The notes under the pieces are model-generated. The model was not told the DNA's origin, made no database searches, and saw only the letters and a list, made by a program, of their open reading frames with translations. A stretch of DNA of 63,279 nt, the filler included, from Bigelowiella natans CCMP2755 (lineage: Eukaryota > Protista > Cercozoa), in NCBI GenBank assembly GCA_000320545.1. It is 4 parts of 4 records of this genome, joined end to end, with 100 filler letters (N's around TTAATTAATTAA, not from the genome) between each part and the next. Parts side by side here need not be neighbours in the genome. Positions count along the whole stretch, not along the records: positions 1 to 21,903 come from ADNK01000201.1; positions 22,004 to 42,549 come from ADNK01000815.1; positions 42,650 to 61,034 come from ADNK01001915.1; 1 more part is not named here. One strand, written 5' to 3'. Made by a program: the position numbers and the translations under genes. Positions 13,982-57,805 of the stretch are shown here, piece by piece. Every line of letters begins with the position of its first letter. Within the stretch, counting starts at the first letter, position 1.

Positions 13982-14099
13982 CTCTTGCCGGTTGTAGGCT
14001 TCCGCTTTCATGGTGTCAATCATGCAGTTGCGATGTTCATCTTTCATCATCAAAGACGTGAGCGACGCTTTGTGGATGAACTGTATCAGCCAAATCAAA

Positions 14100-14930
14100 C
14101 TAACAGCCCCTTGCAGTCATCCATGTTGTGCAGCATGTGCATTGCTAGATCACAGGACCATGTGCTGCACGTCTAGACGTGTCGATCGCAATGGGTGCTG
14201 TTGGTGCACAACTCGTGTGGTTGCAATCGCAGACGTGGCCGCAAAGAGCGGTTGTGTGACTGACTGCACACCTTCATTGACAACTGCATTTGCTCAGTCT
14301 TGCACGTCTGGACGTGTGTTTCGCGTTCGATGTGTCACGTGCAGTTGTTCGTCTCAGTGGTGCCACAGCGCCATCTTGGCCAACCATGGAACTCCAAAGG
14401 AAATCCTGCGTTCACGCGTGCACGGAGCTGGGGAAGGGCGGGGCACGCAAACAATGATCTTTTTGTGGGTCTGATCGAAGGTTTTCATGACAGACATGCA
14501 ATGTGTCACGCCAGCACGTGTGCATCATGCACATCACATTGCTGTGTCCATCACAGTCATGACAGACGTGCAATTTGTTGTGCACACGTCACGCACATCA
14601 CGTGCGCTTGTTGCACCTGCTCGTGCAACTTCGCGCGGTCCACATTGGGTGTGAGACGCTCTGGCGCTGAACATTGGAACACATTGCACATTGAACATCA
14701 AAATTTTGACATTGATGTCACCACGTGCTCCACTTGATGCACATCTTCGGCAAGAAGAAGGACGTGCTGAAAATGCATTGTTCTCTGGAAGAAAATGAGG
14801 CAGATCCATTAGTTTGGTTCTCAGACATGGCGAGTCCGGCATGTAGAAAGAGAAAAAAATGGGCAAATTCAAGAATTGACAGATTTTCTCTAATGTCGCA
14901 GGGTCAAAATCGCTCGCATTTGTCTAAGTT
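14100..14930. other. TpA-depleted, TG/CA-rich intergenic tract A
   Basis: No TA dinucleotide between 14176 and 14809. The 7 TAs in the tract are all CTA or TAG. CpG is abundant. Confidence 0.9.
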
Positions 14931-15157
14931 TCTGCATGTTCGAGTACGGTCAGCTGTTGGTAAATCGCCCGATCCACTCACAACCCACAGCTCCACAATT
15001 CAAAGACTGTGAGAGATCGCTGACCTGTGCTTCCTGTGTGTGCATGCACATGCATCCCCCGTGTGATATGGGGAAGCCTCGTGGAGGAGGGCTATTTTTT
15101 GCTCTGACTAGTCCTTTTTTTGTTACGTACGTTTAAATTCAGTTGGAACAAACGAAG

Positions 15158-16265
15158 ATGTCAACCGAAGCCAAGAACTCGAAAAACTGGGAGAAGTTCG
15201 TGTCAGAGTACGGATCTTCACAGAAGGGCAAAACCTTCGCCATCACGGGCTGCACTTCTGGTACAGGCTTGGAATTTGCGAAATACATTGCTGGCCTTGG
15301 AGGGGACATTATCATGCTCAACAGGCCTTCAGACCGTTCGAAAAAAGCACTAGACATCGTGAAGGGAGTCGCTGAGAACAAAGGGGGCAAAGTAACTCAT
15401 ATAGACTGTGATTTGATGGACTTCAAGAGCGTACGTGAAGCTGCAGAGGCGCTAAAGAAAGAGCACACAGAAGTAGATGTACTTTGCAACAATGCCGGTA
15501 TCATGGCTTGGCCTGACAAAGCAACTACGGACGGTTGCGATGTGCAAATGCAGACAAACCACTTATCACACTTCTTATTAACGATGAAAATCTGGTCATC
15601 ATTGGAAGGTGCTGCAGAGAAGCGTGGTGAAGCTCGGATTATCAACCATTCTTCCCAGGCACGACTGGGAGACAAACTCGAAGCCAAATACCTTGAAAAG
15701 AACGGGGGTAACTTGGGCGGTGAGGAGGCTAAGTGGAAACGTTATCACCACACCAAGCTAGCAAACTGTGTTTTTACCTACACGCTAAACGACCGTTTGA
15801 AGGCTGCTAAAAGCAAGATCAAGGTGTTTGTAGCCCACCCTGGACTATCTGCGAGTAATCTACAGGCAACATCCATCGCGGCTGGGGGGATGAAGGGCAA
15901 AATGGATGTACCCCAGACCGCTCAAGAAGGTGCTATGGGCATCATTCGTGCTGCTATCGACGCCGAAGCGCAAAGTGGAGATTTTTTTGGACCCGGAAAG
16001 TCAGGTGGTGAAGGATGGAAGGAGGGATATCCGAATAAAATAGAGCCGGAGGAGGTATTGCCTTTTTCCTTTTCATCACATGTCACCCCATCTACGGAAA
16101 TCTGTGTGCGCACTGCAACAAAAACTATGAGTACATTGCAGTAATAGTTGCCTTTAACATCCTCACGAAACATTGATGTTTCCGTAGGTGTTGCTACACT
16201 CAGATAGCAAAGAGATGCTGTGGAAGGTGAGCAACAAAACTCTTGGAGAAAGTTGGGATCTATGA
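15158..16265 (+). CDS. Short-chain dehydrogenase/reductase (retinol dehydrogenase/WWOX-like), 2 exons (15158-16054, 16188-16265)
   Basis: TGCTSGTG Rossmann motif, NNAGIMA, TNHLSHF, catalytic YHHTK and AHPG. A phase-0 GT-AG intron restores the typical C-terminus EMLWKVSNKTLGESWDL*. Confidence 0.95.
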
Positions 16266-16450
16266 TCGCACTAATGATGAACCACGCAGAACTAGTTCAA
16301 CCATCGTGTAGGATTGGGTGTTCTTGGGCAACTGTCAGGCATAAACGAGTTTGTGCATGTGAATGATGTGACATGAACATCAGCGCATGATGACTCATGT
16401 TGGCGGCTAGCATGAGCAGTCTGTTTTGCTCTTCTGAAATGAAGGATGTA

Positions 16451-17620
16451 CATGTTGACATGTGTTGTTGTGCGAATTCAATGTGGCAACGTGCGCAGCG
16501 CGAAAAGCGCATGCAAAGAATGCATGCATGCTGGCGCAGCACAGAGGGGTGCACAGCAGGGACCTCTTGACATGTTGTCATGTGCATGTGCTGTGATGCA
16601 GGTGCGATCGATCAATGTCAGTTTGGCAGTCAGTGAGACATGAATGTCAAACGAAGCATGATGCATGCCAGCATGTAGCATGACCATTCTTTTCAATGAT
16701 GACAGAAAATTGTGGTGGAGATCTTTTTTCTGAGAATGCTGGAATGCAATCGCATGCGTCGCTTGCGTGCGTGCTGGCGTGTTCACACGCGGGATCCATG
16801 ATCCATGCCATTCTAGCATTCTTTCCAGTTTTTCCCCACCAAAAAACCAGTCCCAGACAACATCGAAAAGAAACAACGATTCATTGCAGTCTGACAGTGG
16901 CCAGGTGCAACTTGAGTTGTGTCACTCCTGGTGTGGAAAACTCCATCAGGCAGAGAAAGAAAGAAAGAAAGAAAGCCAAGAAAGAGAACAGCAGCTCTGA
17001 TCTAGTGATGGTGTGGTGCATCAACATCATCCAATTCTGCAAAACAAGATGAATGAATGAATGAATTGTCAAATGAATGTGGGTTGAATCGAAGAAGAAG
17101 AAGAAGAACAATGAACAATGATGATGAACCACATTTCCAAAGTGTGACAAGACATTTGCAGTGTGCGAAACGCAGTGCCTCGAACTAACTTCAGTGAGGT
17201 CCATCTAGTGAAACCAGAAGGAATCAAGAATGGCATTCTAGCCACTCCTCCGAAAGAAGAAAAGGAGAAAGGATCACGAACGAACGCACATGAACAATGA
17301 ACAATGAACAAAGCGTTGATCAAAAACTACATGCGCCAGAACCACATGGGAGACAGGCATTTGCACGCAGCAGAGCCTCAACAACACTCGCATGAAGTGC
17401 TCCAAGTACGAAATCGACGCTCACAATGCTACGCAGAGCCAAGTCGTTTCCATTTCTGCGACATGGACAAACCATCCCAGCATCTCTACGGAATTCATGG
17501 GCATTTCACCCTTGCGACAAGCCTTTCAAGGGACTAAGATTAGAGAGACCAGCACGACCAAATCACAACGGGGGAATTAGAATCTACCCTTCCGTTTGCA
17601 TCCGATCTTGGCGCTTTCCG
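16451..17620. other. TpA-depleted intergenic tract B
   Basis: Hand count: 14 TA in ~1.17 kb, 13 of them in CTA or TAG context. Confidence 0.85.
17106..17252 (+). repeat. Dispersed repeat, copy 1 (possible MITE/SINE-like relic)
   Basis: Matches the reverse complement of 23652-23861, including an identical 41-nt core TGTGACAAGACATTTGCAGTGTGCGAAACGCAGTGCCTCGA and the block AAGAATGGCATTCTAGCCACTCCTCCG. Confidence 0.9.
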
Positions 17621-17669
17621 ATTCTGTTAAGATTCAGAGAGAGGGGAAGGAGGTGGACGGACAGCAAAG

Positions 17670-18857
17670 ATGGGCATGGTTTATGATGCTTTGTCAGTTC
17701 TGCTGTACTTTGCGATCATTGCGGCAGCTGTGGCGAAACATTCGGCGATCGGGTAATCAAGTGCATTGGGAAAGCAGCGCGGTGTTATTAACCTACTGCG
17801 CGCGGGCCACACTGTGTCGTATCTTGCGTGCTTTTAACCGCTTCGTTCTCAGGTGTGTGTATGGGATTCTATTTTTGGTTCTATACCTTTGCGACACCTT
17901 CAATTTGATCGGAGCTTGGGGGACTGCACGTGCTACTTTTGCCGCATCGCTGGCATCTCTCTTGGCTGTTATCGGTCAGATACCACGATTAGAGGACACG
18001 GCACGAAATTCACCCAAACTAAGGAGTGCAAATATATTATATCTAGCATGAGTATTGTTGTGGTTTTGCGTATTCTCCTGGTGGACAGGCTTTCACATCG
18101 CCCTCGCTCGCAATGCTGTCAAAGACCCAGGTGCTTCGACGGCATGACCACAAATCTAACATGTCACGCATAACGCGCAAGCTCGCCGTACACTTACGTG
18201 AAATTGTGTGTGGAAATTGGTGCTGGTTTCTTTCAGACGACCATTGGTGGTTCATCGTGGGAATTAAGAGGAAGGAAGATCCTTTGTTGGTGTACCTTCC
18301 GGTACGTTACGTTTACAAGATATGCCCCCTCCCCCTATGTCAGCTTTACGTACAACCGTTGCATCCAGCTCTTTATAAGGAGTATACATAAACGCATGGA
18401 TAACAAGCCTAGAAAATGTGATCTCAAAGGATTTCACTCTTCTGAATTCTAACAGGATGTCTGCATCGCTGTCATTTCCTTAATCTCAATGCTCTACAAA
18501 ATCTGCTCCGTGGTTAGTGGAGACGGCATCACCCGTATTTCTTGCTATGAATTCCCTGCCCCCGTCCTTCATATCGTTGTCATCACCGTCACCGCCGCAC
18601 CAACCCAATCTATATCGTTTAAGAGCACTAGCTGAATATCAGTATCACACATTCGTGCAGGGGACCACGCAAGATGACGCATCGCCCTCATCGCCGTCAA
18701 CAACGGCCGTGGCTACTGCACGGAGGAATAATCAACCCAGAGACCTCCATGGAAGAGCTCAGACACCATTAGCATTCCGCATCGAGATTAGCTCCATCAA
18801 CATCTACTTGCTCGCATCCGCCATCGTTCAATGTACGAGTAGTAGAGTAGTAGAAGT

Positions 18858-18888
<31 letters not shown>

Positions 18889-19828
18889 ATAGTAGTAGCA
18901 GTAGTCATATCATAACGACACGTAACTCTGCCCTGCTCTCAAGGTTCGTTGATAAGCTTCGTCGGCTATTATGTGCCGTGGTCGCTGATGACGGTGTGCT
19001 TCGGTTTTACGCTCGGATTTACATGGATGGAGGCCGCGTTGTCGTGCATTCTGCCTGTGTTTGTTTTCGCGCATCTGGTCGTCAACTTGGTGTTGCAAAC
19101 GCTGAACGAGGTGAGGACAGGAAGTAGAAGAGGAAGAAGCAGAAGAGGGGAGGGGGTGGAACAATAATGATGCTGGAGCAACTGATAGTATGGAGAGATG
19201 AGAATATGAGTAATTACAAATCCTATTGTTTTCCCCCTGCATTATCAGCGCATTGAGAATATCTCTTTTCCTTTTCTTCTTCTTCCTCTTCTTCTTGCAC
19301 TCGTTCTTGTGTATGCGTGCATGATGGGGCAGGTGGGAGGTCTGGACTGTTCCACAGATCTTGCGTCCTACGGGTACTCGTCCTCCCTGTTGATGAGTAC
19401 CGTATGATGATAATTATGATGAGAATAGTAATTCTCTAGTAATAATCAGATAGACCAAATTCCATTCTTCCTTTCTTTTTGCTACCCCCCCCCCCTCTCC
19501 CTCCTTTTCACTCACCGCTTCATGTTTGCTGTGTCTATTTATAACGCACGTACACCTGACACAACCGTCGTTATCATCATTATCATCATTTGTCATCATC
19601 ATCATCATCATCATCATCATTTGTCATCATCATCTTCATCATCATCATCATCATTATCATCATCATTATCATCATCATCCCAATCGTGCAGGCTCTGCCT
19701 TTCTAAGCTTGACTTCCAGGGATATGCATCAGGTGTGGTAGCAGTATTTAGTAGTAGAAGTAGTAGTGGCAGTAGTAGTAGTTTGAACAGAATCAGCAAT
19801 CATCATAGCATAGGCATCTTACGATTCT

Positions 19829-19885
<57 letters not shown>

Positions 19886-21583
19886 GGGGGCGGGAAGAGA
19901 TAGGGAGTAACACACAGTCAATCGAGCATTGGTAGTCTTTCTCAGGCAATCGTCAAGACGGTCTTTCCATCTTGTCCTTTTCCTTCCTCTTCCATGTTTT
20001 CTCGAGCTGATTCTGGTTTCTCCCCTCTCTTTCACTCCATTCGTAGTTGTTTCCATTCTCCTCCTCTACATGGCGAGCCTTGCCCACTACCAGACGAAGT
20101 CCCGAAAGGTTAACGAGACCAAGAGAAAGAGAGAGAGAGCGGCGGGGGGGGGTGATGGTAATGCCGATGACGGTGATAACGAAGGAAGAAGGAATCGTGA
20201 TTGATAAGTGCGATGTATACATGCATGTATTTTACATGTGTAGTAGGAGAGGCAAATTAATAAATCAATACACACGTGAATATTAGCAAAAATATAAGCA
20301 AGGATGCAGCCAACAGTATGACTATCTCCTCACATGCAGAAACACGAGGAGGAGGAACAACGCATGGTGGGCACAGCCTGGGGAGGGGACAGTAACAGCG
20401 CGACTCGTGGCATCGATGCTCGGTCGTATGAGTGAAGAAGAAGAAGATGATGACAATAATTATAACTAAGAAGTGTTTATCATCACCCCTGAGCTTCAAA
20501 ACGCTTCGCTCTCACTCGTCGTGCTCATTCCTTCCTCTCCCCCCGCCTTCCTCTCCCCCCTGCCTTCCTCACGCCACGACAAACTTGCAGGCTCGTGCGT
20601 TATGAGGCTGACGGCGATACGTCGCACTACGATGGGAGAACAGATGGAGCTGCTGCTGGAGGCGTCGTGGTAGACATGAAGGGCCATCATCGAGCGAGTG
20701 ATGACGACGATGATGGGACGGAAAGGGTGGAGATGAAGACGAGGACGGTATATGATAGTTGTTATAGTGGCGATGTGTAAGGTCTCCTTCTGCTCTTTGC
20801 AGCACCCTAGCGAGTAATCGCGGCCGTCTACCTTTTCCTTCTGTTCCCAAAGAAACAGCATTTCTTCACCCCTTTTATTCCCCATTTTTTTTACCCCTCC
20901 ATCTCCTGCCACCAGTCCACCCTATCCCTCCCCCCTCCCCTCCTACCGGGAGGAGCAACTTGGATCATGATGGTCGTGGGGTGGACGTTGAATGCATGTG
21001 TTAAAAGTTCAGAATAGATGGGTTTACTGTTTTGGCCATTGCTCAATTCCCTCCCCCCACCCCTCCTCCCCTTTACCCCCCCCCCCCCCCTCTCCCCTGG
21101 CCTTCTCGCTATTTGTCGATGATTGATCTTCCAGAAAGCGATGGACGATCCTGACGGGCATCATGAGTCCCCCGCCATACTTGCTACCTCTGAGGTACAC
21201 AGCACGTTAGCAATAATGCCACAACACAAACACCGTACATCGAACGTCCACAACACAATTCTACGGCTGCGTTGATGGTCGTTCCGCATCCAAGGCATCT
21301 TGTCCTGGTGTTCCATCGTGTATGTAAAAGTGATGTTCTTCCTTATTCTCTCTCTGCTTTCTAAGGATCATAAGGAAGGGCAGCAGGGGCAGCAGCAGCA
21401 GCAGTTTGGGCAGAATTTGCAAGGTGCTACTTCTAAACAACTACCCAAAAGTTCCACACATAATTCAGCATCATGAAAAGAAATACGCGCGCTATTGCCG
21501 TCACCACAATCACCACACCAGAGGCTGCGGTTTCGAAATGCTAGGAATTGTGAAGGAAACGTGCATAGGATGATGATGATGGC

Positions 21584-21616
<33 letters not shown>

Positions 21617-21903
21617 ATTCACCCCGCATCCCCCCCCCCCCCGCCATCTTTCTCTTATCTATCTACCTAATTCCCCCCTTTCCGCCTTGTTTTCCTTCTT
21701 CCTACCCCGTCTTTCTCTTCTCTCACGACAACAACAAACATGCACAACAGAAACAAAAGGACCAGGCATTACCGAGAGACTATGTGGCCGGCTGACAGAT
21801 TCGTGGGCGAAGACACAACTGGAAATCCTCTCTCTACTTGCGGTGGGAGATGCCACGAAAGGGGGAAAGGGGGAGGGGGGGGCGGGGGGGACGACGACAA
21901 CAC
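17670..21903 (+). CDS. Polytopic membrane protein, probable Piezo-family N-terminus; truncated by the gap
   Basis: Spliced exons MGMVYDALSVLLYFAIIAAAVAKHSAIG-CVYGILFLVLYL..ASLASLLAVIG-FHIALA..-WWFIVGIKRKEDPLLVYLP-DVCIAVISL resemble the first Piezo TM unit (..SLVYLLF..HLALQ..IGVTR..APD). Further hydrophobic exons follow. Confidence 0.45.
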
Positions 21904-22003
21904 NNNNNNNNNNNNNNNNNNNNNNNNNNNNNNNNNNNNNNNNNNNNTTAATTAATTAANNNNNNNNNNNNNNNNNNNNNNNNNNNNNNNNNNNNNNNNN
22001 NNN
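21904..22003. other. Assembly linker N44-TTAATTAATTAA-N44
   Basis: Exactly 100 bp with a six-frame-stop spacer; identical to the other two gaps. Confidence 0.98.
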
Positions 22004-22021
22004 CTTCAGAGTTGGTATAAA

Positions 22022-22066
<45 letters not shown>

Positions 22067-23321
22067 CAAAGAGGGGGGGAGATATGTCAGCGGAACAGAA
22101 GAAGGTAGCTCTTCCATATCATTGCCTTTTCTGAAAGACGTGAAGAAGTAGCACATTCGTATTCATTAAAGTGCAATTCCCCAACGATAGACAATCCCTC
22201 CCATCGTAATATATAGTGTACAGGCTAACGGATCTCATGCAACGTCTCACAGAGATCATCTTTGATCTGAAAGACCGAGAGCGTTTATTACCCCGAACCC
22301 ATGTCGCAGAGGCGAATACTGGGGCCTTCCCCGCATGCAGCGACGATGGACGTGTTTGCTCCGGGCGCGTGTGGGATCGAACAGCAACGTATACTGAACC
22401 CGAGGCGAATCTCATCTATCAGCTCCACCGGCGCAGACGCGTCCCATATGCGTATCTTGCCGTCATGTCCTCCCGTTATGAAGAGCCCAGGGTCGGTCGG
22501 ATACCTGAAAGGAGGATTAGGGGTTATCGTCCGGATTGCGTTATACATTTTTGATATTGGTGAATCGACAGCACTTACTCCGTTTGAAAATTGTTATAAG
22601 TGCGTTGAAATGCGTGTGAGGTGTCTGTGTGTGTAGAAGATATACATGTTATGCTCTTGATTTTGTGTTTTGAGTCCTCGAAATATTTAAGAATAGGATG
22701 TGTAATAATGATGACCGCCACTGGTGTGTGTCGTCACAGCATTGTACTTACCACTGACAGCAGTGCTGCGACGACTTGAGGGAGCGTATACGTCCTATCG
22801 GCTTGTTGAAATAATAATGCGAGGAGGAGGAAGAATCAGCTTCGTTTTCTTCCTCGAAATCCTTCCTGACAAATCATCATTTACCATCATTACTATTGCC
22901 ATTGTTGCTATTTATAGTTTTTATTTTCTTCTTCCGAGCTCCTCAAACAACCGAGGAGTCCACAAGAAGCAGATAGGAAAATATCGCTGCGGCACATGTA
23001 CATTGCAGACTACTAGCAAATTCGTTCCTACCTGTCCATCCCATCGTCATCATCGTCGAATTGTTCGAACGAAGGTGATTTTCTGCTTTCGTACGCCTCG
23101 AGATCATAGATGCTCACACCACCCTGTAGGTCGCAGGAGAGGAGATAGCGGCCCGATGTCCGATCGATGTTCAATCTCGTCACCGGTGCCGCATGCAAGG
23201 AGTCGACGTACTCGGTGGACGACAGCAACAACCCGGCTGCACGGCGGGCCTGGACGCGTCGTCGATGGACATCGGGCCGCAAAAGCCCGAGAGCACGGAG
23301 CTTTAGCTCCAAAGGCAGCAT
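22004..23321 (-). CDS. ERCC8: DNA excision repair WD40 protein CSA/ERCC8; 3' part lost in the gap
   Basis: N-terminus LKLRALGLLRPDVHRRRVQARRAAGLLLS..HAAPVTRLNIDRTSGRYLLSCD..VSIYDL, then YPTDPGLFITGGHDGKIRIWD and IVAACGEGPSIRLCDMGSG. These segments are characteristic of CSA/Rad28. Confidence 0.88.
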
Positions 23322-23464
23322 CGCGTTGCCCTTTCTCGTGTCATGGGATGGGAAGGAGAAGCACCGGAACGCAAATCGATTTGTCGTTTTTTATATTTTT
23401 GGCAGCATTTTGGATGTCGCACCGTTGTGATGTAAGTAGAATCAGTGTGTTCCGGGAACTTTAA

Positions 23465-24595
23465 TTTTTCGCCCGGATTGCATGAAGCGGACCATGAAGG
23501 TGTGGTCCATGGGATTGTTCGCTTGGTGTTCGTAGGTGTGGTGTTCTTGCTTGGTGATCTCCAAGCATGAGCAAACCATCACGGCAGGATTTAGGGGTGC
23601 GTGGTCCTGGAGTTGGCAAAGATCATGCACAAAAGACAATGAAACTAGGAACGGAGGAGTGGCTAGAATGCCATTCTTGGTTCCTTGCAGTTTCACTTTG
23701 TGCATGAGCCAACACATGTTCGTAGCGAATGTTGCAGCATTGTCATGGCGTCATGCCCAAAATTAGACCTCGCTAGATTTAGCTCGAGGCACTGCGTTTC
23801 GCACACTGCAAATGTCTTGTCACATTTTGGAAGTGTGGTTTATCATCATTGTTCATTGTTCATTGATTGGTTCCCAGCGCGGACCCCCTCTCAGCACTTG
23901 CAGAATTGCAGTGCCGTGCGATGTTGTGTTGTGCTCATTCTGACCGCAAATTCATGTGACACAGCTAGGCAGGCAGACATGCCCGATGCTTGGTCTCCGT
24001 GGCCACATCATTCGCCCTCATGCACCATCGTCACCGTTTGGAACAAACTTAGAGCTCATTGGTTCTCATCACAATCAGCCTGACATCATTGTTCGTCATC
24101 GGATCATTCCCCTGAATTCTGATCACACCGTGCCTGCGTCTCAAGTGACGCTGGGCTGATCGTGCAATGTTTTGGCTCAGCAGGTTGCTTGCAGAGCGAC
24201 CGATGAGCATCCTGCACGTGCACGCTACGTGCTGTGCTAGCACGACGTGCGACCACGTGATTGTGTGATGATGGACATGCAATTGTGCAATGTGACACAT
24301 GTGTTGCATGTCCCATTGATCATGTGTCCCATTGCTGTGTCCATTGTCGTGCAAGGATGCAAGGATGCCGCAAAAGCACGACCACAGCTGTCACAGCGAC
24401 TAGCACGCATGCACGCAGATTGCACTTCGCTCTGTCCGCGTGCGTCTGGTGCATTGAACTAGTGAACCCAAACAGTGACCATGTGCGTGCAACCCGGCTG
24501 AACACTCGCGCACGATGCAGATCCGCACACGCACTTGCCATTTCTGCGGTGCACTGCTGCGAAAATGCCGAATGCATGTCCCAAATTCATCTTCA
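23465..24595. other. TpA-depleted intergenic tract C
   Basis: Hand count: 15 TA in ~1.13 kb (7 CTAG, 4 TTAG, 2 GTAG, 1 CTAC, 1 TTAT). Confidence 0.88.
23652..23861 (-). repeat. Dispersed repeat, copy 2 (about 65 bp longer internally)
   Basis: Homologous to 17106-17252 in the opposite orientation. Confidence 0.9.
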
Positions 24596-24610
24596 TTAAT
24601 GATTTTCATT

Positions 24611-26144
24611 TCAAGGAATTTGTCTCAAAGTCCGAGACCTGCAGTTCACATTTCTTGGTGGAAGTGCCTTGGAAGGGTTGATCTTACTTCTAAGCCAGAG
24701 GAATCGCTGTGATGCTGCCTCAGAATCTGGATTTGCTTTGGTTGCATTCTCAAAGTCTAGATAAGCATGTACCAAATTGGAAAGCTTGAGGCGAGTTTCC
24801 CCCCGAAGCAACAGAAACTCGGATTGAGAGGGGAGGAGTTTTATCGCTTCTGAAAGTTCTCTCTCTGCCCTTTCGTAATCTGTATTGTTGAACAATCTCC
24901 TTCCTCTTTCGAATCGCAGATGCCCAAAATCTGCGGACAACTTCTTGTATTGATGAGCATCCGTCCCCCCTTCCTGGCTTTTGAGGATGTCCAATGCATT
25001 CGTGTAAAACTTGACAGCGTTGTCAAACTCGTCCAGCTGCTTGTAGCAATTAGCTAAGTTCATGTGAAATTCAGCTGCTTCAGTGTTGCGCGATATGGCT
25101 TTCCGGAAACAGGTGATGGCATCCCTTACTTTGTTCATTTTGAGTAAACTGCAGCCGATGTCGTTCAGAGTTACTCCCATCTGGATATGTATTTCTTCGA
25201 GCTCCTTTACAGATGCACTTTCTTTGCCCTTTGACTCAGAGTGAACTATACTCATTGCGGTCTTTAGATCCTCTATCGCCGAGTCAAATTTTTTGGAATG
25301 CCGGTAAACTGTAGCTCTTAGCCTATAAGCATCGGCTGTTGGATTAGCTAATAGCGACGCATTGAGGTTCCGTATACTTTTCACATGTTCTCCATTCATC
25401 AAGTGTGCTGAAGCTTCATTGTAAAGGGACAAGGCCTTGCTCCGTATTGATTCCGCAATTCGAAATAGCTGTTTATTCTCAGGTTCTATTTTTCCGGCAG
25501 CTTCCAAATCCCCCTTCGCTCTCAAAAACTGCCTAAACTCAACCATAATCTTGGCACGGAGAATGAGAGCTTCGAAGTTGTTGGGGTCCTCCTTAAGAAT
25601 CATATCTATTTTCTGGAGAGCCGATTTCTTTAGACCATTATGTATATTTATCTTCGTTTTTTCAATCTTGTATCGGGTAGAAGTGTCCAAGACCAATGCT
25701 TCATCTATCTTTTGTTCTGCTTTCTGCCACTCAGCGTCTTCCTGCATTAACTTACCTGATATTTTGTATTAGCATAAAAATGTCTATGATGAAATATTCT
25801 CTTCATCGGAAATGAAATTTTTACTCACATATGATAAAGCAGATTCCGGCCAGCCTGTCTTTCAACCTCTGATCTTGTGGAGAGAGCTTCAACGCCCGTT
25901 TAAAGTTTAAGTAGGCGGACTTAAAGTCACACATCTGAATGTAGATTTCTCCTTTTCGACGATATAACTCGGCATTGTTTGGTTTCAAAAATGCAGCTGC
26001 ACCCAATGCTGTCACCGCAAGATCGGGCCGCCCATCAGCCAAGTGGCTCTCAGATATCTGCGTCTGTCGAATAACCGACTTTCGGAGTGCCCCTCTCGAC
26101 CTCGCTTTAAGAGTGAAGGGGTTTACTATGTACTGGTCATCCAT
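24611..26144 (-). CDS. TTC16: Tetratricopeptide-repeat protein, TTC16-like; 2 exons (26144-25829, 25755-24611)
   Basis: Multiple TPRs. ELYRRKGEIYIQMCDFKSAYLNFKRALKLSPQD..LKDRLA resembles the TTC16 N-terminal LCDFSSA..NLRRA segment. A phase-1 GT-AG intron joins the two ORFs. Confidence 0.75.
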
Positions 26145-26598
26145 TAGAAAGTATCAAAACCTGATGGATGGGTCACGCTAATCCTTATTGCATTGCCGAA
26201 ATATGTCAATTCTCCAAAAGTGATACCGTATTTAACTCCCCACTCCCCGAACAGATTGGAGGACTAGTCGGTGCGCATGTGGGAATATCTGAACCAAAAA
26301 ACATAAATGATGCCGAAATCGTGGGATTCAACCCAGTCCCCCCTCCCTTCCAAACATCGCACCGAAGGGGTGGGGACGAAAAACCTCTCCGATCCAGCGT
26401 TTCGTTTCTGAGCACGGTTTCTTTTTGGAGATGCATGCAAATCTCGAGAAATCCCCTGGATGTTTTATCCTGCGACATCAATGATCATTTATCGCATGGG
26501 GTAAATCGACATAGTTCTTTCAAGTCACTTTTTACAGCGAGAAACATCCAAGGACTGCAACGAACAATGAACAGAACACCCCCAACGGGACCAACTGC

Positions 26599-32330: not shown

Positions 32331-32460
32331 TGTAAAATCGTTAGCAAATGGCATCAAAACAGATCACAAGAAAGTCATTCATTTGTGAGTGACACAAGGT
32401 GTGCCCATGCCCACACATATTCGTTGGTCTCATTCATTGGATGGAGGATAGAGGAAGCCA

Positions 32461-38524: not shown

Positions 38525-38559
<35 letters not shown>

Positions 38560-41158: not shown

Positions 41159-41822
41159 CGGTTGTGACAATATGAATTGCGATCACCGGAGCTGGCTTCT
41201 CACTCAGGGGCAGGGGGAAGGCCAGCGTTTCCGTTTTCGCATGTCTCCAACGACATTCATATCTTCATAACAATCGTCGTCCGAATGGTCCTGATGTCGT
41301 AGTTAAACCAACTCAGTCATCAGTCACTAGAGAACGCATGGCCGCTGCCACGCTTAAGGATCGCCGGCATGCATTTGCGTCGGCGCTGCAACGAAAGCGC
41401 GACCGCATTCTGACAAATACTATCCTCCAGAATTGTGCGCCTTCGTATGCAAGCGACTGCCGCTCTCCTCTCATTACTGGCGTAGGGGGGACGAACCCCT
41501 TGTTTCCACAAGGTATATTTGTAATAAAACCTAAGAATAAGGCGTGAGAGGGGGGGGCAGGGGACCTAACGTACTATTTTGGCCAGGGGGCGGATGGGCT
41601 CCTACTGAAGTTGTTGCAGGGTTGTTGCCGGCAAGGGAAGTTGTTGTGAAGTTGTTGCCGGCAAACGAAGAGTCGCTCTCCCGGGTTGTGGCCTTCCAGG
41701 AGTGAAGACGCGCGGAGAGATGGAAGGAATTGTACAGTTTACCCGGATATATCCTACAATTCTTTGCCTAAATCAAGTTTTCCTCAGTTGCCCTCCGACC
41801 CCGACCGGGCTGCCCATTATCC

Positions 41823-42549: not shown

Positions 42550-42649
42550 NNNNNNNNNNNNNNNNNNNNNNNNNNNNNNNNNNNNNNNNNNNNTTAATTA
42601 ATTAANNNNNNNNNNNNNNNNNNNNNNNNNNNNNNNNNNNNNNNNNNNN
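42550..42649. other. Assembly linker N44-TTAATTAATTAA-N44
   Basis: Same 100-bp spacer. Confidence 0.98.
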
Positions 42650-44038
42650 CCCCCCCCCCCCCCTTCTCCCTTTCTCTCTCTCTCTCTCTCTCTCGCGTCC
42701 CTCTCCCTCCGCTACCTACTATCAGTTGTCGTATTTGCTCCGAAAGCAGCCGAATAAAGACACGCGTCGAGTAGCACATGGCCTGCAAGCTAAGATAAAG
42801 AAGGACCTTGCTCGATATGGTGATGGGCAGTGAGTATGTAATTTATCGAACAAATTTCTTTAAGTTTTGTTCCTGGTTTCTCTCTCCTTTCTCTCTCCTT
42901 TCTCTCTCCTTTCTCTCTCTCTCTCCTTTCTCCCTCCTCCTCCTCTCCCCGCCTCTCATGTATGGCTTTTGGTTTGCCCGCAGCAACTACATTATCGGTG
43001 AGCCTGCAATACGGCCCTGAGGCAAAGCTACCAAACTCCTTGCGAAATTCATCCGGTGGGTTGTTGGAGAACAATGCCACTTGCTTTTGGTGCTACACGA
43101 CACGCCGTGCAGGCTGCGCTTTATCATCTATTTCGGAAAACAAGCGCAACATCTACACCAATACGAACATGCTAAATGGATTGATAGAGAAGGGGCGAGA
43201 GAGGGGTAGAAAAGACAGCGGGATTGCGTTTTGTTGTTTAATACTAGCATTGACTTATGCATGATCCTTCTTCCTCCACCACCACTGCCCCTGCACTAAT
43301 TGTTATTTGAAAGGCATCGTAGCGCCCACATTCACACGGCGGCGCGACGGTCGGTTTTGCTACCTCTCAATCGATTCAAACTTGTTCCCAAAGGAGCGGC
43401 AGCCAGAACAACAAGAACAAGAACAACAACAACAACAACAACAATATACACACGCACACCGAAGCGAGCAAGAAAGCTTAAAGAGCCACGACGGCACCAG
43501 TAGCCCTTCCCCTCCCCTCTTACATCTTACCGTTGTATTCTGGATCGCAACGGACGAAAGCTCGACAGCTGCCACCGCTACTGCTGCCGCCTCCCTCTCT
43601 CCCCTGAGGAAAGAGCACGCCCATCGAAAGGCAATGGATATTGTCTTCAAACTCACCGGGATCTGCGAGCCCCCAATGGCGTTTCAAGTCGCAGAAGAGC
43701 ACGTTTCCCCTCGTCTTTTCTCTGCGTCAGCCGGTGCAGATGCTGCTGCCACCTCCTCACAAGGCGAAGGGGGGGAACCCATTCGCACTGGAGGGGGGGG
43801 GGACGTCCGTGCCAGCAGACACCTTCAGTTAGCGGTCAACTCCCCCATCGCCCTGCGCGAGATCAGAGAGGAAATGTCGAAGATGTCGCACGCAAGGGTG
43901 AGGATGATGGGGGGTCTTTGCTGCGCCGCAACCGCGGCCGAGAAGGTTGAACACGCACAGCGCACCGCGCGCGATTTCCGATTTGTTTCCCGTCCTGATG
44001 CAGATCCGTGGCTCGGGTATGGGTCTAGGATTCTATGA
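42650..44038 (+). CDS. C-terminal part of a divergent protoporphyrinogen-oxidase-like (flavin amine oxidase family) protein
   Basis: TLSVSLQYGPEAKLP..GIVAP..YLSIDSNLFP..LHLTVV..AMDIVFKLTGICEPP..MMGG..KVEHAQRTA follows the order of the PPOX C-terminal motifs (VAVVNLQY..LP, G.LVP, DS..FP, VTV, LGL..P). The 5' part is in the gap. Confidence 0.45.
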
Positions 44039-44692
44039 TGACGGCGAACGATGAATGATGCTGAGGAGGTTGAATTCATTCGCTTATCCAATGCACTCGT
44101 GATTGTCAATGCATGCATGCATGGCTAGATGGCTGCGAAGAAGCAGTATCCGACGGCAACGCGACAAAATAACCGATAATTGCGTCACATTACGTGCAAT
44201 GCTAGAATGTGCTGAGCTTATTTTATTATATTTAGCCGTGTAGCTATTTAGCATGTTTAATAGTTTGCTGCCAGTACTACTGGGCATCTGCTAGATCTGC
44301 AGCACACGCATGCAGAAACACTTCAGATATTTTATTTGGTGTCGTCACATATCGATACTTGCGAGCACATAAATTACGCATAAGAACATGTAGCGTGCGC
44401 TCCTACGCTCGGCGATGTATCAAAGTGTCAAGGCTTGGGAAGTCTATAAGTCTATCTATGAGTAAATCACTAAATGAATACCGCTTTAACTAATAATTTA
44501 TCAACTGTTCAAATGCAATGCATGCATGCATGTGTTCTCCATGGGCTCATGCTCATTGCTTATGCTTTCCGAACTCACTATCGTAAGTAGTAAAACTATA
44601 TATTCTATAATCTAGATAATCATCTCTTCAGAGGCTGCTACTCTGCTGCCCTATTCCTATTCCTAACGCAACGACGAATTCATGCAACCAAG

Positions 44693-47455
44693 TCAGTTGT
44701 CTTCGACAGCTTCCAGAGTGTACTTCACCTTCCCCCGGGATGGGTGCGCCATTGCAATTCTTACTATGTCGCCGTGTTCCACGTGCAGCGTGGCTTTGAA
44801 GTTCTTGGCCCTCCACTTCGATCCCTCGTATAGTTCGGCTCTTCCTGACTCGATCGCATCAGCTCGGTAGTGATGAATGGTAGTTTTCACAGGTTTGGGG
44901 CGCTGCAGCCGCCATCCCGCCGCAGGGACGTCGTTGATCTGCGAAATCGTGAGTTTCCCGTTAAATTTTATGCGGAAGTACACGGCCTTCGGCTTGCTCT
45001 CCTTCACATCGAAGCTGCGTTCCATGCGCCCTGGCTTCAGCCGGATATACGGATTGGACTTTCCGTAAATGACGCGAATGGGGGCCTCGCCCTCGAGGGC
45101 ATTTCTCGCTTCGTGGCGTCCTTCAGCAATCGCCTGCATTGATGGTGACAGGGGGGGGGGGGGGGCATGAGAGCATGAGGGGGTTGTGAGTTATGAGATG
45201 GCTTGAAAACGGTATACTGCGCTCACGCCAGCAAAGAAACATCAATTTCGCGAGAGACAGGGCTTCGCAGTGATGGTGCCTTCGCTCATATCATATGTCC
45301 CCACTGTTTTGTCTTGTTTGTGTTCAACTTACGACGCCGCCGTCCTTCGCTTTCGCCGAGGAAGCTGAAGCAGCAGCCGCAGCAGCGTCGTTGCCGTCGT
45401 TCACGAACACTCCTTGCTGCGCCGAATCGGCCCACGCGTCCAGGCGGGAGACCGCCTCGATGTAGCGATCCAGGTTGTGGTGCTCGAAGAGGTCAAGAAG
45501 TGTGTGCGGGTACCACCCTGCGACATGCTTCGCAGGGTAGACTGAGAGCTGCTCCTCCTCTCGCGGTGTCGGGTCCGACTTTGAGTAGTACACCTTTGAT
45601 TTGAGGAAAGCTGCGTAAGTGGCGCTGCTGAGGCAGGGGTTCTGCAGTAGCGCGGCTATTGCCACCCCTCCCCCCCTCCCTTTTTGCAGTTTAAACGCGC
45701 GTGCTTGTGTGTAGAAGAAGCGCGGGAGGAAACCAGGCTTTCGCTGTTCTTCGTTTGTTTACTGGTGATACTAGTGATAAGATGTTGTGATTGGGGATGT
45801 GGTGTTTGAGGCACCTGGAGGTCGGAGTCCTTCCTATTCTTCAGTGACTGCTCCTCTGCGCTATCGGTCGTTAGCTGGAGGAATATCACCTCGCCTGCCG
45901 CAGCGCAAACCAGGAGGAGGAAGAAAGGCCAACGGCAAAACAACTGAGAATAAGGAACTCTACTTCTGAGCATCGTAGAATGGGAATGCTGGTTAAGATA
46001 GAGAGGAGGGGAGAGGTGTAGGGGATGGTGATGGTGATGATGGTGATATTATTATGATGCTCTCAGTAGCATGGCCATTATTCAGCACCTGTCGGCTCAT
46101 ACCCAAGGAACAACTCTCTATGTTCCACCCAAGTTTTCCGCGCAATCTCGAAAAGGTCTAGAAAGCCGATTCTAAGAGCCAGGACACCGGGGCACATCGT
46201 CATATTAATCTTGATGCGACGCGCTCACTAGCACACAGTGACTCAGATTCCGCAAACGCTTTCTACTCCTACAATTCACTTGTTTGCATGCTCTCTATCT
46301 CTCTCTCTCTCTCTCGCCGACTGTCGCGCAGTTACTCGCACTCAGTACCCCGCAAATAGCTTCACTAGCGAGCCAACAACTCCTTTAGGAATAACGAATT
46401 CCACGTAGGCCGGTATAACCTACAAGAAATGGCAATGAAGAACTGAAGGAAAAGGAAACGAGATTTAGCCACCTGCAAGAGCCATTCTGGTGTGCCTAGT
46501 CTAGGTATTGGGTCGTCTCGATTGATGTAGTAGTGAACGTTTCTTTGGAACTCATCCCACCACTGCCTCTTCCATGCGGCGCTGCGAGATTACATCGTGG
46601 TTAGCAGCTCGCACAGCAAACACCAGCGGTAGGTTGCAAGTCACCACAAGCGGCAAACACCACACTCATAACTCACAACAGTCAATGCCCCGTCCTCCTG
46701 CAATAGGTAGTAAGCACTTTCGAGGACTACTGACCTGTATTGCCTCCCAGATGCAACCACCTGCGGCGACCCAAAGACTCGAGCAAATATCCGGTGGCTG
46801 CTATCGCCTCGTGAGCGGAATCGTCGGCGAAGAGCTGAGAATCGAGGACTTCCAAGGAAATACCTGTTAAATTTAGACAGATCTCACTCGTTCTCCTCAC
46901 GCCTGGCTGCTTAGCACACTCACATATTCATGGTATCTTTTTCGTTGTTTTATACTTATCAATCCCCCCCCCCCGGTCTCTCCCTAAATCCCACTAAATT
47001 TTTCTTTTTTGTAGCTAAATTAATAGATCTCACGCAAGCGTTATCTGGCTATAGGCCCCGCCAAGAGAATGGCCGCCTATCACAAGGGTGTCCAACCGAA
47101 CGTTGCCTTTTTTCGCTTTATTGCGCAGGTTCTCCGTCAGTATTCGGGTGATATTGCCTTCGATCATCGCTAAGACGTCCCCCGCGGCATTGCCATTTGC
47201 AATGGCATTGGCCATTGCCGCCTAATAGGAATACAACGTGGTCGTCATTTCAATGTTATTCTCTGCTGATCGTCGTCCCTGCAGGAAGGAAGCTCGTTGG
47301 AAATGACTTTTCGCGATTTCGCGTGTGGGATGGTGGTATACCTGTAGCTTGACACCGTTTGCCCACTTTCGCCCGGGGGAAATGTCAATGATCATGTCTA
47401 CGGGGTCTTGTGTACCTCGGAAAGTGAGGAAGATCTAAAATGATGCACACACATA

Positions 47456-50022: not shown

Positions 50023-50775
50023 TTTCCCCTACTAAATTCACATGCATGTCTTCTCGCAACGCTGTCTTGTCAATCATCACTGACATTGTGACAAGTCTAG
50101 TTTAAAGAAATCAGCCCGTAAATAAAACGTAAGTAAAGCGTGAGCACGTGTTGCCCATTTATACCCTTTGTCACGACAAATAGTAGAATAAGCCTTGCCA
50201 CATGGCTGGATGTATATATATATATATATATACATATATATATTTATATATACATATTGCAACATGAGGCGATTGTCATTATGCAGCTGTAACGTTCATT
50301 GTAGAGACAGTACCTACATTGAGCCTTCGATTTCATTGTCTGCACTGCACTGCAATGCCTGATCGATCTAGCAGAGCGCGTCTATGTACTTCGCTGGCAT
50401 ACGCACCACTAGACCGTTTTCTTTGCGCACACATGCAAAGACTGAATAGTAATTCATATTCATAAACCGTCCTAGTGTGGTTTCGCATGTCGTTCGATGT
50501 AGTAACCCTCCGGGTTGTTCACATGCTGTGTGATATTATGCGTATCGCAATGAATAGGCAGCCATGCCTAGTCATGGGCTAGCGGCACAATTGATACACT
50601 GTTTGCAGAACATGTTACTAGATCATGTGACCAGCGCGCAACTATAACATAAGCGCGTGTTTGGCATACGATGCACAGTTGCCTGCAACAGCATTGCTCG
50701 CACAGTCAAGCAAGTGCCTTGCTGTGCGCTGGTGCGACGCGTGCATGCGCGCATGTGCCAAAAAGTAGTAAAGAC

Positions 50776-50819
<44 letters not shown>

Positions 50820-50912
50820 CAAGGCAATATTCTACTAAAATGACGACAATGTTTGCCTGTCAGTTTGATTGTGATAATAGGATTTTACTTTATGCACACG
50901 AATTGCGTTTTA

Positions 50913-52048: not shown

Positions 52049-52081
<33 letters not shown>

Positions 52082-54811: not shown

Positions 54812-55338
54812 TGTTGCTTGCTTCCGACTTCAGAATTCAGACCGAAATGCGACTTTGGTCAGGTAAGATTCCAAGAATAGCCTCGAAATTCTAGTAAATC
54901 AGTTAAGACTATCAAAATGTTGCTGAAAATAGCGCACCAACTACAAATTGCACGATTTTATTTGTCCCGAGGCATCGCTTTTTCGCGTCTTCTCTATGTG
55001 GTAACGCTATTGTGGAAATTCAACTCTAAAATGGCCCCAGTTGTACACAATTTACCCTTTTTTCATTTCAGCCTCAAATCTCACATCTTATATACCAAAA
55101 AGTCGTACGAATATCATATACGACATCCAAAATAGAGATTTTTCCACATATGCAGGAAATGGCATTGTCGTAGTAAAAGAATTCATGTCGTTGTGGAATA
55201 TTAAGTCCTATGCTCTTCACGGCGAGTTAAATGGACAAGAAAAATACCGGGATTTACATAAATCTGGAATAAATTAAGTGAAAATCAGAACAAAATTATC
55301 ATATTTTCTTTGTCGCAATTCTAAATTAATTGCTCAAA

Positions 55339-56664
55339 ATGGCGTCCCATAGGTCTGTGTAGTATGGGTTGGACCACCCGAAGAACCCCTCTTTTATCTT
55401 GAAAACAGGATGAATACCAACCCGTAAAATCTTCGCCCACCTTTTCCGTATATACTTTTGAACTGCCTTGAAGAAAATTGGAAGTTGGCGAGGTTCTTGG
55501 TGGTCCGAATGCTGGTTCGGAATGTGTACCTAACATTTTGTTCTATCGCAGAAATCTTCCCTCGGCATTATTCATGCTGATCATGGCAGGAATATCGGCT
55601 GCTGTTCCTTCTGGATCATTTAGAAGGGTCGCCTCGCCACAAGCTAGGTTCAGAGCCCCAATTCTCCCCTCCCGCAGTACTAGACAGCTCCGGCTCTCTG
55701 TAGAAGGAATCAAAGGGTAAACTTTAGCAACAATTAAAATTCGTCATTAGTATCATAGAAGTGGATCATAATATTTGGCATCAAAAGGTTTGAATCATTT
55801 GTTTTCGCCCTTTTCACACTTATCCTGTCTGTAGAGCGGGGCCTTTGAACGGCCTCCTCAACTCTTTCTACGAAAAGATGCAAAAGGCAACAGAGACGAT
55901 GAAGGTTGGGACAAAATATTGTGCTTCCTCGACATCGCCCTCCCTCCCTCCCTCCCTCCCTCCCTCCCTCCCCCCCCCCCTGGTTTTTCTTTGCTGCAAC
56001 CAAAACAACTTCTCCTCCCCTTAAGAGAGCTTTATCAATCTGGCTATTGAATGTAACATGACGGTATATAACAGAAGGACTTAGAATCCGCTGAGTATGA
56101 GGGATTTTCCACGGATGAGACCGTTCGAGTGATCGTTAATGGAGCACAGCAACCAAAGCTCGTGGATGTGACGCAGGCAGCTGTTGATCAAGGTTCCTAA
56201 TATTCCGTATCAGCCATCTCTGCGCGCATGTATGTGATATAATACAGTGCCCGTTTGTGCGCTTATATGTGATGGTCATTTATGCATTTGAGGATTAAGC
56301 ATTGAATGGCCTCTCTCACTGTAATTCTCTGAAAAGGGGCTGAGAAACTAGAGCAACTTGTGGTTGAGGCTTCAAAGGATGCATACCGCGTGAGCAAGCA
56401 AGGGCAGGAAGAAAGAATGAAGAAATACTTCAAGGTTACGAGATATATATGAAGTTTATTTAATGGATGTATTAATCGTAGCTGCACAACATACTTGCAT
56501 CGAAGGCAAGTCTTTCTATCATCCATTCTCGTGTAGATTAGCCTATCTATCGGTGTTAACTATGCATGGGGAAATGCTACCAAATATGTGATTTTCGATA
56601 TAAAATAATGCTCCTGCAGGATATGGGACTTCCTATGCCTCCCAACGCAAAGCTGCCGTTTTAA
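55339..56664 (+). CDS. ybaB: Plastid-targeted YbaB/EbfC family protein (STIC2-like)
   Basis: Signal peptide + Arg-rich transit peptide (SALFMLIMAGISAAVP..RRVASPQARFRAP), then KDLESAEYEGFSTDETVRVIVNGAQQPKLVDVTQAAVDQG-AEKLEQLVVEASKDAY..EERMK..MGLP. Confidence 0.9.
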
Positions 56665-57805
56665 TTAAAGCTGCATTCCAACGATTATATGGAACTGAAC
56701 TCCGACAGGGATTCTTGCCAAAGCTCGCTCAATGTACGAATTATGCGCTCGCTGCTTGCTGTGGGGGTGCATTACTAAATCTGTTAAAAAAATAAAGAAC
56801 AGTTTATTGCTTCGAATACATGCTGAACGTTAGATTTAGATAAAAATCAGAATGTCATCTTGGCTGTGTAGCTGCCGTTAGTTGTTAGCAGCGATCGAAC
56901 AAAATGTTTCTTCTCTACTATAAATGTGGCATTATGTGGACAAAAAATATTGTGCGGCAGATGCAGTTTGCGTACATGCGACCACGATTTTCATTAGCTA
57001 GCCTAGCTTATTGCATATGTGTGTGACGGTCCAGCGGTGTACATGACCTAGATAACCATCGATCTAGCCCTGCTAGCTCCCAGCTAGCCTGCTTGGCGCA
57101 GGCATTTACGTACAGTGCAGTGCGCCGTGCGTGTATGTACACACGCATTATGTCGCGCTAGCGTGCTGTATTCGTGGCTCATGAGCAATGTGATGCGCTC
57201 AATTGCAATAGACAAAGTAATAGCACATGTGGTACACATATGACATTACATGTGAGACGGATGTAATGAAGAATTAAATTTTTTCAATGGTCATCCTGAT
57301 GTAGCTGTGCAATGCAGCGGCTACAGCGCTAATGTTATGTCTGTTGATATTACATGTCTGTCATAAGTATCCCCTTCTTCTTCGCAAGTCATTTACAACA
57401 TCTTTAGTTGTATCATTGTTACGCGTGATGGCAACGTCATGACAATGCTAGAATATCACCTCAAGTTGCTGTGTCCATCATGCGCAATAATCCATTGCAA
57501 ATGCTTAACACCGCACACATATTAGGATGATAATAGAAAATGTTATTTTGATCAGCTCATTCATTGCTGCATCCGTCTCATATATGCATGCCGCACACAT
57601 CTAAATAAAACTTAGCAGCTGCAAAACTAGCAGAAGGCTTCATGATGGGCATTGCTCTTAAAATTACACCAAAACGGAGTCGAGGTGCACGATGATCATG
57701 CACACACACATTCATGACGATCATTTGTCGCTAGGACGGGCTCTTCTCAGCAATGCTAGAATGACGCGAAACCAGCTACCAGGTATCCAGAGAATCATCA
57801 ACTGA

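Follow-up and report, generated by a model that had tools for sequence, protein, structure and literature searches.

TpA-depleted tracts between co-oriented genes in a window of Bigelowiella natans DNA: placement, composition and possible origins

A 63,279-nt stretch of Bigelowiella natans DNA (referred to below as the window), made up of four joined parts with filler N runs at 21904-22003, 42550-42649 and 61035-61134 that all have the pattern 44 N, 12 bases, 44 N, contains five intergenic tracts in which the dinucleotide TpA is strongly depleted and CpA and TpG are in excess. The question raised by this locus is why some spacers were hit and others spared, and whether the direction of the flanking genes has a part in it. 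The window is intron-rich, with a GC content of 0.48 and an overall TpA observed/expected ratio (o/e) of 0.76. Nine spacers were compared, five of them head-to-tail (tandem) and four read as convergent; the Piezo-like/ERCC8-like interval and that from RPAB4 to the P0017 gene abut the N runs at 21904-22003 and 42550-42649, respectively, and were left out. A TA with neither a preceding C nor a following G is termed DTAH, the remaining contexts being CTA and TAG. The explanation towards which we lean, with little more than even confidence, is that the five tracts are ordinary B. natans intergenic DNA in which TpA was converted in place to CpA and TpG, likely by the published TpA-specific A:T to G:C hypermutation.

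Placement of the tracts

The spacers compared, and one further stretch of similar composition, are listed here; strands are those of the flanking genes.

S1: spacer 13982-15157, tract 14085-14944; P0018 gene (+) then SDR gene (+); 7 TA, 0 DTAH; spacer TpA o/e 0.23, CpA+TpG 1.69.
S2: spacer 16145-17575 (1431 bp), tract 16450-17406; SDR gene (+) then Piezo-like gene (+); 7 TA and 0 DTAH in the tract, 4 DTAH in the spacer; spacer TpA o/e 0.24, CpA+TpG 1.67.
S3: spacer 23377-24610, tract 23463-24596; TPR gene (-) and WD40/ERCC8-like gene (-); 15 TA, 1 DTAH; TpA o/e 0.28, CpA+TpG 1.73.
S4: spacer about 30700-32331, tract 31079-32331; a gene (-) with RNA end at 32332 and an Agenet/Tudor-like gene (-); one DTAH (at 32093) in 1253 bp; TpA o/e 0.32 and CpA+TpG 1.78 over 31101-32250.
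S5, weaker: spacer about 37471-38093, tract 37521-37942; two genes (-); 11 TA, all CTA or TAG; TpA o/e 0.43 and CpA+TpG 1.84 over 37551-37950.
C1, spared: 28183-29100; TpA o/e 1.19, 59 DTAH, (AT)15; RNA contigs place the end of the + gene at 28319/28354 and the beginning of the - gene at 28877-29214.
C2, spared: 44039-44692; TpA o/e 1.02, 32 DTAH; P0017 gene (+, verified) on the left, a candidate - open reading frame (ORF) at 44696-45139 with a codon score of 24.9 on the right.
C3, spared: 50023-50912; TpA o/e 1.00, 49 DTAH; weak Pfam matches to MFS (+, E 2e-4) and NUDIX-like (-, E 9e-4) on its two sides.
C4, spared: 56453-57805 (1353 bp; given as 56665-57805 in the preliminary description); TpA o/e 0.91 and 63 DTAH over the 1353 bp.
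Putatively divergent: 2618-2887, an erased core upstream of the P0018 gene (ATG at 2941); 4 TA, all CTA or TAG; TpA o/e 0.26, CpA+TpG 1.43.

The depletion far exceeds what chance spacing of TA would give. Runs free of DTAH measured 1014 bp (31079-32092), 957 bp (16450-17406), 860 bp (14085-14944), 755 bp (23842-24596) and 422 bp (37521-37942); S3 extends to 23463-23840 beyond a single DTAH, and 635 bp of S1 (14175-14809) are without any TA. By comparison, the longest TA-free gap in 20 first-order Markov simulations of the window was 119-189 bp, and in 20,000 simulated 1100-bp spacers, matched to the convergent ones in DTAH density, the longest DTAH-free gap had a median of 81 bp and a maximum of 263 bp. 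The four large tracts have TpA o/e of 0.10-0.27, and both TpA to CpA and TpA to TpG products are present in them (CpA 1.60-1.93, TpG 1.68-2.00); GpC is about 1.3, and GG/CC and AG/CT are low.

A blind 400-bp scan at the cut-offs published for this species (given below) recovered exactly the five tracts and one false positive. The merged segments of the five had TpA o/e of 0.19, 0.20, 0.24, 0.32 and 0.43 and CpA+TpG of 1.72, 1.75, 1.74, 1.78 and 1.84. The false positive, 38251-38650, lies inside a - gene, passes both cut-offs through its (CA)19/(TG)16 repeats and retains 7 DTAH; microsatellites of this kind will mislead window-based screens. The stretch 43640-44017 was also rejected as a tract, being TA-poor but GC-rich coding sequence with no CpA/TpG excess.

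The preliminary description of this DNA had placed all five depleted tracts between the 3' end of one gene and the start of the next co-oriented gene, and this placement stood: for all five tandem spacers, spliced RNA contigs, a homologous protein or a Pfam match support the directions of the flanking genes (the RNA label of the contig runs is a presumptive one). TpA o/e in the five tandem spacers was 0.23, 0.24, 0.28, 0.44 and 0.65, with CpA+TpG at 1.53-1.73, against 1.19, 1.02, 1.00 and 0.87 in C1 to C4, with CpA+TpG at 1.23-1.47 and 32-59 DTAH in each. The longest DTAH-free run took up 61-73% of each tandem spacer and 10-12% of each convergent spacer.

That the four convergent spacers keep TA, as had also been stated, was upheld by their composition; their orientation held to different degrees. 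C1 was verified as convergent by RNA contigs on both sides. C4 was likewise verified, here from domain matches: YbaB_DNA_bd in + exons at 56072-56197 and 56333-56449, and a SET domain on the - strand, where the right-hand ORF ends at 57806 with a CxCxxxxC, post-SET-like tail. The right-hand gene of C2 is probably on the - strand, judging from its codon score; the - ORF 44696-45190 gave no homologue when searched among longer proteins. The convergent status of C3 is weakly supported, by the two Pfam matches. Sequence searches of the PDB with the ORFs beside C2 and C3 returned nothing useful.

The contrast of 5/5 tandem with 0/4 convergent spacers erased gave p=0.0079 in a Fisher test, with 0/3 convergent spacers p=0.018, and with the two fully verified ones p=0.048. 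C4 is comparable in length to the tandem spacers, and sparing is therefore not a matter of length alone. We regard the link to orientation as a hypothesis from one window, nominally significant, small and regionally confounded.

Outside these spacers, TpA was spared in 18 confirmed introns (o/e 0.84) and in exons (0.67), including introns just 350 bp from a tract edge. The statement that short divergent promoters mostly keep TA fits the spacers 26145-26532 and 41604-41771, neither of which carries the erasure signature, and the weak exception noted at 2620-2886, with all of its four TA in protected contexts, is the core at 2618-2887 listed above. The interval 59700-60550, rich in TA, poor in ORFs and set in a block of minus-strand sequence, was considered as an unhit tandem spacer and discarded as an intron, given an ankyrin-like exon and acceptor at 59727-59860 (read by eye). 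As a side observation, CpA+TpG is raised in C3 and C4 (1.39-1.47, against 1.11 in introns) beside normal TpA; this could reflect a native alternating purine-pyrimidine texture or partial or old erasure.

Composition, flank context and tract edges

TpA hypermutation has been measured in this species. In a mutation accumulation study, 231 of 302 new substitutions fell in two integrated viral regions, and 230 of the 231 were A to G or T to C, every one of the 230 on TpA (Mettrop et al., 10.64898/2026.01.13.699255). The long-term signature was defined there in 1-kb windows as Rho TpA no higher than 0.43 together with Rho CpA+TpG of at least 1.52; 124 clusters of at least three such windows were read as foreign DNA and linked to viral or transposon-like sequences, and the viral regions covered comprise 25-186 kb of integrated nucleocytoplasmic large DNA virus (NCLDV) and virophage DNA. 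The main text of that preprint contains no analysis of gene orientation or flank context, and "context", "promoter", "orientation" and "trinucleotide" do not occur in it (its supplements may list flanks); no publication that connects the loss of TpA with gene orientation came up in a literature search. The earlier reading of the erasure as a real mutational process agrees with the de novo TpA to TpG/CpA changes of the preprint. The process is thus already described; the host head-to-tail location, the flank rule and the orientation link are absent from the main text. All five merged tract segments lie within both cut-offs. On a 1-kb grid, 4 of 63 windows (14001, 16001, 24001 and 31001) pass both and are isolated, so the tracts would fall outside the 124 clusters.

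Several measures relate the tracts to the spacer DNA of the window. The summed frequency of TA, CA and TG is 0.220-0.243 for tandem spacers and 0.243-0.252 for convergent ones; introns have 0.199 and exons 0.182. Tandem spacers have a GC content of 0.46-0.50 and convergent spacers one of 0.41-0.43, and this gain of about 0.06 matches about 7% of steps turned from TA into CA or TG. Frequencies of 4-mers without TA in the tracts correlated with those of the convergent spacers at r=0.78 raw and 0.885 after in-silico erasure; the corresponding values were 0.42 and 0.57 for introns and 0.35 and 0.56 for exons. Each tract is as similar to erased convergent DNA as to the other tracts, and the observed and predicted changes of word frequency on erasure correlated at r=0.65. 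From this mass balance and 4-mer match, together with the lack of any foreign match, our reading is that the tracts are native spacer DNA that underwent erasure in situ. For CpG, o/e was 0.67-0.97 across the tandem spacers and 0.89 in the whole window.

The CA and TG excesses are alike in the tracts, with no consistent order relative to gene direction, which makes a one-strand cause such as R-loops unlikely; R-loop and one-strand models were rejected on this ground. Since introns keep TA, a pressure that acts everywhere and is countered by selection alone is unlikely as well, and the pure-selection model, with TA kept only where needed, was set aside.

No transposon or viral Pfam match was found in 68 short tract ORFs (a CedA match, E 0.004, was below its cut-off), and about 13 long ORFs searched in Pfam gave one weak TLC match only. 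With this and the native-spacer 4-mers, the tracts carry no sign of foreign origin at the level of proteins or words; a decayed non-coding element could still lie within them. Comparison of the tracts with each other and with the rest of the window showed no common sequence except a repeat of about 150 bp. ORFs of 120-158 aa occur within the tracts, and stop-free frames of 138-158 aa without a Pfam match were seen at 13998-14474, 14264-14737, 16478-16921 and 23667-24083. DNA without TA lacks TAA and most TAG stops, so gene predictions in tracts may be artefacts.

The surviving TA were counted by context in tracts that had been chosen on total TA only. The tracts hold 5 DTAH, 13 one-sided contexts (CTAH/DTAG) and 13 CTAG, against 193, 79 and 30 in convergent spacers (Fisher 3e-7), corresponding to tract/convergent density ratios of 0.027, 0.17 and 0.46. 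A symmetric multiplicative fit outperformed both the C/G rule and a YTAR rule and gave per-side retention of 0.71 for C, 0.34 for T, 0.25 for G and 0.06 for A. Among products, CCAH+DTGG were enriched 2.10x and CTGH+DCAG 1.21x (Fisher 0.015), which suggests, on small counts, that the deciding base is the one two before the changed A (position -2 of the edited adenine, 5'-D-T-A). Within the one-sided contexts, CTAT/ATAG numbered 0 in tracts and 32 in convergent spacers, CTAA/TTAG 7 and 21, and CTAC/GTAG 6 and 26; with CTAT/ATAG fully erased and the others surviving, neither the C-before/G-after rule nor the YTAR rule is exact.

Tracts start 14-305 bp past the upstream stop codon and end short of the next ATG or RNA start by 54-380 bp. 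Upstream contigs from two or three studies have their ends at 14032/14075, 24607-24657 and 32332-32375, next to tracts beginning at 14085, 24596 and 32331; three tracts start 1-53 bp from upstream RNA-contig ends, a weak hint that the tract start is the upstream transcript end. Near-zero contig depth over the tracts is not evidence of silence and was not used as such.

Two of the tracts share a dispersed repeat of about 150-210 bp, with copies 91-92% identical:

17106-17252 (+): copy in S2.
23652-23861 (-): copy in S3.

Each copy is co-oriented with its downstream gene and lies 280-485 bp upstream of the RNA start. RNA-contig depth on the repeat is in the hundreds to thousands, with many variants, and one raw-read run (X21) yielded reads almost only on the repeat; the repeat is apparently a dispersed, highly expressed family. 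Its sequence opens on an ATGATGA box, and a weak C/D-box match of snR76-like type (E 0.074) stayed under the gathering score.

Gene models and neighbouring features

The gene models on which the comparison depends are listed below.

2941-13981 (+): P0018 gene, a 1602-aa protein in about 30 exons, mapped as a single gene, with its last 200 aa identical to the window.
Between 15157 and 16145 (+): SDR gene, Pfam 1e-21.
17753-21134 (+): six GT..AG introns, from spliced RNA contigs, of the long gene called Piezo-like in the preliminary description.
22.5-41.0 kb (-): four genes (ERCC8-like; Agenet-like; 32.3-33.4 kb; 38.2-41.0 kb) with twelve spliced-contig introns.
24614-26144 (-), stop at 24611-24613: TPR gene, from protein mapping.

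The TPR ORF (385 aa, -) was 99% identical to jgi/Bigna1/71293, its next matches being from other chlorarachniophytes (46% and 40%); on this identity the window is Bigelowiella natans nuclear DNA. The sequence of 13000-22900 is reproducible, since 14 DNA runs contain 92-94% of the words sampled from it. The P0018 protein accounts for the left 11 kb as one gene, so no spacer is hidden there; the exons tested had no Pfam domain, and several long ORFs within the gene are not exons. RNA contigs of the ERCC8-like (WD40) gene end at 23330-23376. Exons of P0017 (738 aa, Bigna1 77341) run on the + strand up to 44035; its first 392 residues were unmatched anywhere in the window, and the gene adjoins the N run 42550-42649, where part of its sequence would be missing or masked.

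A codon model trained on verified exons assigned 14/15 held-out exons correctly; within the known + gene at 19-21 kb it also produced false antisense scores of 10-14 nats, and only scores above 20 were trusted. A codon model that had been self-trained proved noisy, and ORF length was uninformative on coding strand in the window. Pooled ORF-profile protein searches, by which P0017 (from 14 slices) and P0018 (from 10 slices) were found, left 22 further slices without a match, to which little weight is given. An Rfam search over the whole window returned 0 matches at gathering score, a tRNA search gave 0 genes, and the contig ends showed no poly(A) signal in common.

At the right-hand end, 57806-61963 (-) appears to hold a SET-domain gene with a cysteine-rich end and an ankyrin-like exon at 59727-59860; its long intron, 59861-60550, is packed with (TA)n and (TG)n compound microsatellites. 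This SET and ankyrin-like layout presumably resembles that of EHMT/G9a-type methyltransferases.

Explanations and known systems

If native spacer DNA was converted in place, the process would act on DNA outside transcription units. Convergent spacers may escape because transcription at the 3' ends, or else gene-body chromatin, extends over them from both neighbours, short divergent spacers would be mostly core promoter, and sensitivity would depend on which base precedes the T (A > G, T >> C). Our best guess is that the excluded zone consists of transcription units together with the 3' zones common to two convergent genes.

A number of points weigh against this explanation. At the tract edges, S3 begins 14 nt after the stop codon, and S2 lacks DTAH all the way between 17408 and 17576, where the first RNA contig begins; sparing of 3' UTRs (untranslated regions) and core promoters therefore has exceptions. 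The earlier proposal that the process avoids transcribed DNA and core promoters therefore stands for exons and 18 introns and fails at these edges. Its companion, that silent or untranscribed DNA is the target, was supported in part, by the erasure as a real process and by the sparing of exons and introns; the 522-bp gap between the C1 contig ends keeps TA, so that "untranscribed" alone does not explain which DNA is hit. In the orientation contrast, both neighbours are verified for just two of the four convergent spacers. All of the tracts fall between 14 and 38 kb and three of the four convergent spacers between 44 and 58 kb, which leaves room for a regional effect, and C1 is the sole spared convergent spacer within the tract-rich part. 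Further tandem spacers may have gone uncounted (from RPAB4 to P0017 across the N run, and within 52.7-56 kb). In the word comparison, the ancestral state is proxied by the convergent spacers, and the rates of in-silico erasure come from the same comparison. Among variants of the repeat copies, 4 alternative alleles create TA and 1 removes it, too few to count; that S2 and S3 hold a dispersed repeat is itself a difficulty. The published process is tied to foreign DNA, and the main text of the preprint gives no de novo hits in host spacers (10.64898/2026.01.13.699255).

The genome-wide frequency of the signature sets a further bound. The B. natans genome has 94.7 Mb and 21,708 genes (PMC13746701, quoting Curtis et al. 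2012). The Rho TpA cut-off of 0.43 takes in, by definition, 5% of 1-kb windows across the genome and so allows at most about 4,700 of them; in the present DNA 6 in 63 qualify, from four tracts. Assuming that half of all spacers are tandem, we infer that no more than roughly one in three of about 10,000 tandem spacers could carry a tract. A rule by which every head-to-tail spacer is erased therefore cannot hold, and most would carry no tract.

An origin of the tracts as relics of inserted foreign or mobile DNA, hypermutated as genome defence and either inserted near promoters or tolerated solely in the stretch from a 3' end to the promoter that follows, seems unlikely to us. The published signature is linked to viral and transposon-like sequences (10.64898/2026.01.13.699255), the tracts are discrete, at 0.4-1.25 kb, a highly represented dispersed repeat is common to S2 and S3, and insertion would suit a genome in which at most about a third of tandem spacers carry a tract. 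A promoter-side insertion preference is a property of some retroelements, for example Tf1 of fission yeast. Set against this, the tracts have no sequence in common apart from the repeat, their ORFs gave no transposon or viral Pfam match, and their 4-mers are far closer to native convergent spacers than to introns or exons. The start of three tracts next to RNA-contig ends is not expected of insertion, and an exact 38-nt piece of the repeat was absent from viral contigs, which is weak evidence.

Somewhat more doubtful is the suggestion that the tracts are true hypermutation footprints and the orientation pattern a coincidence, or a regional effect on a 25-kb neighbourhood. It draws on the small sample of nine spacers, the clustering of the tracts within 14-38 kb with C1 as the only convergent spacer there, the p=0.048 obtained with verified spacers only, and the density of low-TpA windows, 6/63 here against a genome-wide 5% by definition. 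Within that same stretch, however, all five tandem spacers are erased while C1, between S3 and S4, is fully spared, as are the introns and exons of the same 25 kb, and the divergent spacers 26145-26532 and 41604-41771 are without the signature.

That the tracts are selected functional elements, such as terminator or insulator DNA or promoter-distal binding-site arrays rich in CATG, TGCA and CACGTG, is very improbable: the strict placement between a 3' end and the next promoter and the 2.4-4.5x enrichment of GTGC, TGCA, CATG and CACG would suit it, but the enriched words are the products of TA erasure from GTAC, TATA and TACGTA-type DNA (r=0.65), the tracts share no motif order or alignment, and a mutational process of this kind has been measured in the species (10.64898/2026.01.13.699255).

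A broader proposition we hold only tentatively and consider rather doubtful. Hypermutation would routinely sweep host transcription-free DNA between a gene end and the next co-oriented promoter, reading 5'-D-T-A, and would thus extend beyond antiviral defence. TA-free tracts would be a heritable imprint of intergenic chromatin state, with 3' ends and core promoters as its limits and gene orientation as its determinant, and many "unannotated TpA-depleted genes" would be spurious ORFs; some of the unannotated TpA-depleted coding sequences of the preprint may be artefact ORFs in tracts. In the one report of it, this hypermutation is cast as defence against integrated viruses (10.64898/2026.01.13.699255). 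Were the signature regularly to fill spacers between host genes, in dependence on gene orientation, a state of chromatin or transcription would be a likelier cue for the targeting than foreign origin, promoter-upstream DNA would be shaped by the process genome-wide, and that state could be mapped from the footprint in the sequence alone. One H3K9me3/H3K27me3 state has been described over a sizeable part of the B. natans genome (10.1101/2025.03.17.643675).

The tracts can be compared with several known systems, none of which they match in full. As in them, dinucleotide-specific, transition-only hypermutation of DNA with sharp domains is seen in repeat-induced point mutation (RIP) of ascomycete fungi, which converts CpA to TpA within duplicated DNA; the present change runs the opposite way, TpA being depleted, and the tracts, or at least four of the five, are unique in the window apart from the repeat of about 150 bp. 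In vertebrates, CpG decays outside CpG islands where chromatin or transcription state permits, and composition likewise becomes a map of that state; the dinucleotide and the chemistry are different, and in the present case it is promoter-distal upstream DNA that has decayed and gene bodies that are spared. ADAR prefers a 3' G, unlike the -2 rule seen here, which, if right, has a C before TA protecting and a G after the A not protecting. More generally, A to G change beside a 5' T and clustered editing fit adenine deamination of the kind considered in the preprint for ADAT2/TadA, ADAR and AID/APOBEC (10.64898/2026.01.13.699255). The viral hypermutation of B. natans itself is alike in species, in TpA loss with CpA+TpG gain, in affecting both strands and in the thresholds reached, and differs in extent and setting, occupying viral regions of 25-186 kb where the tracts are single stretches of 0.4-1.25 kb among host genes.

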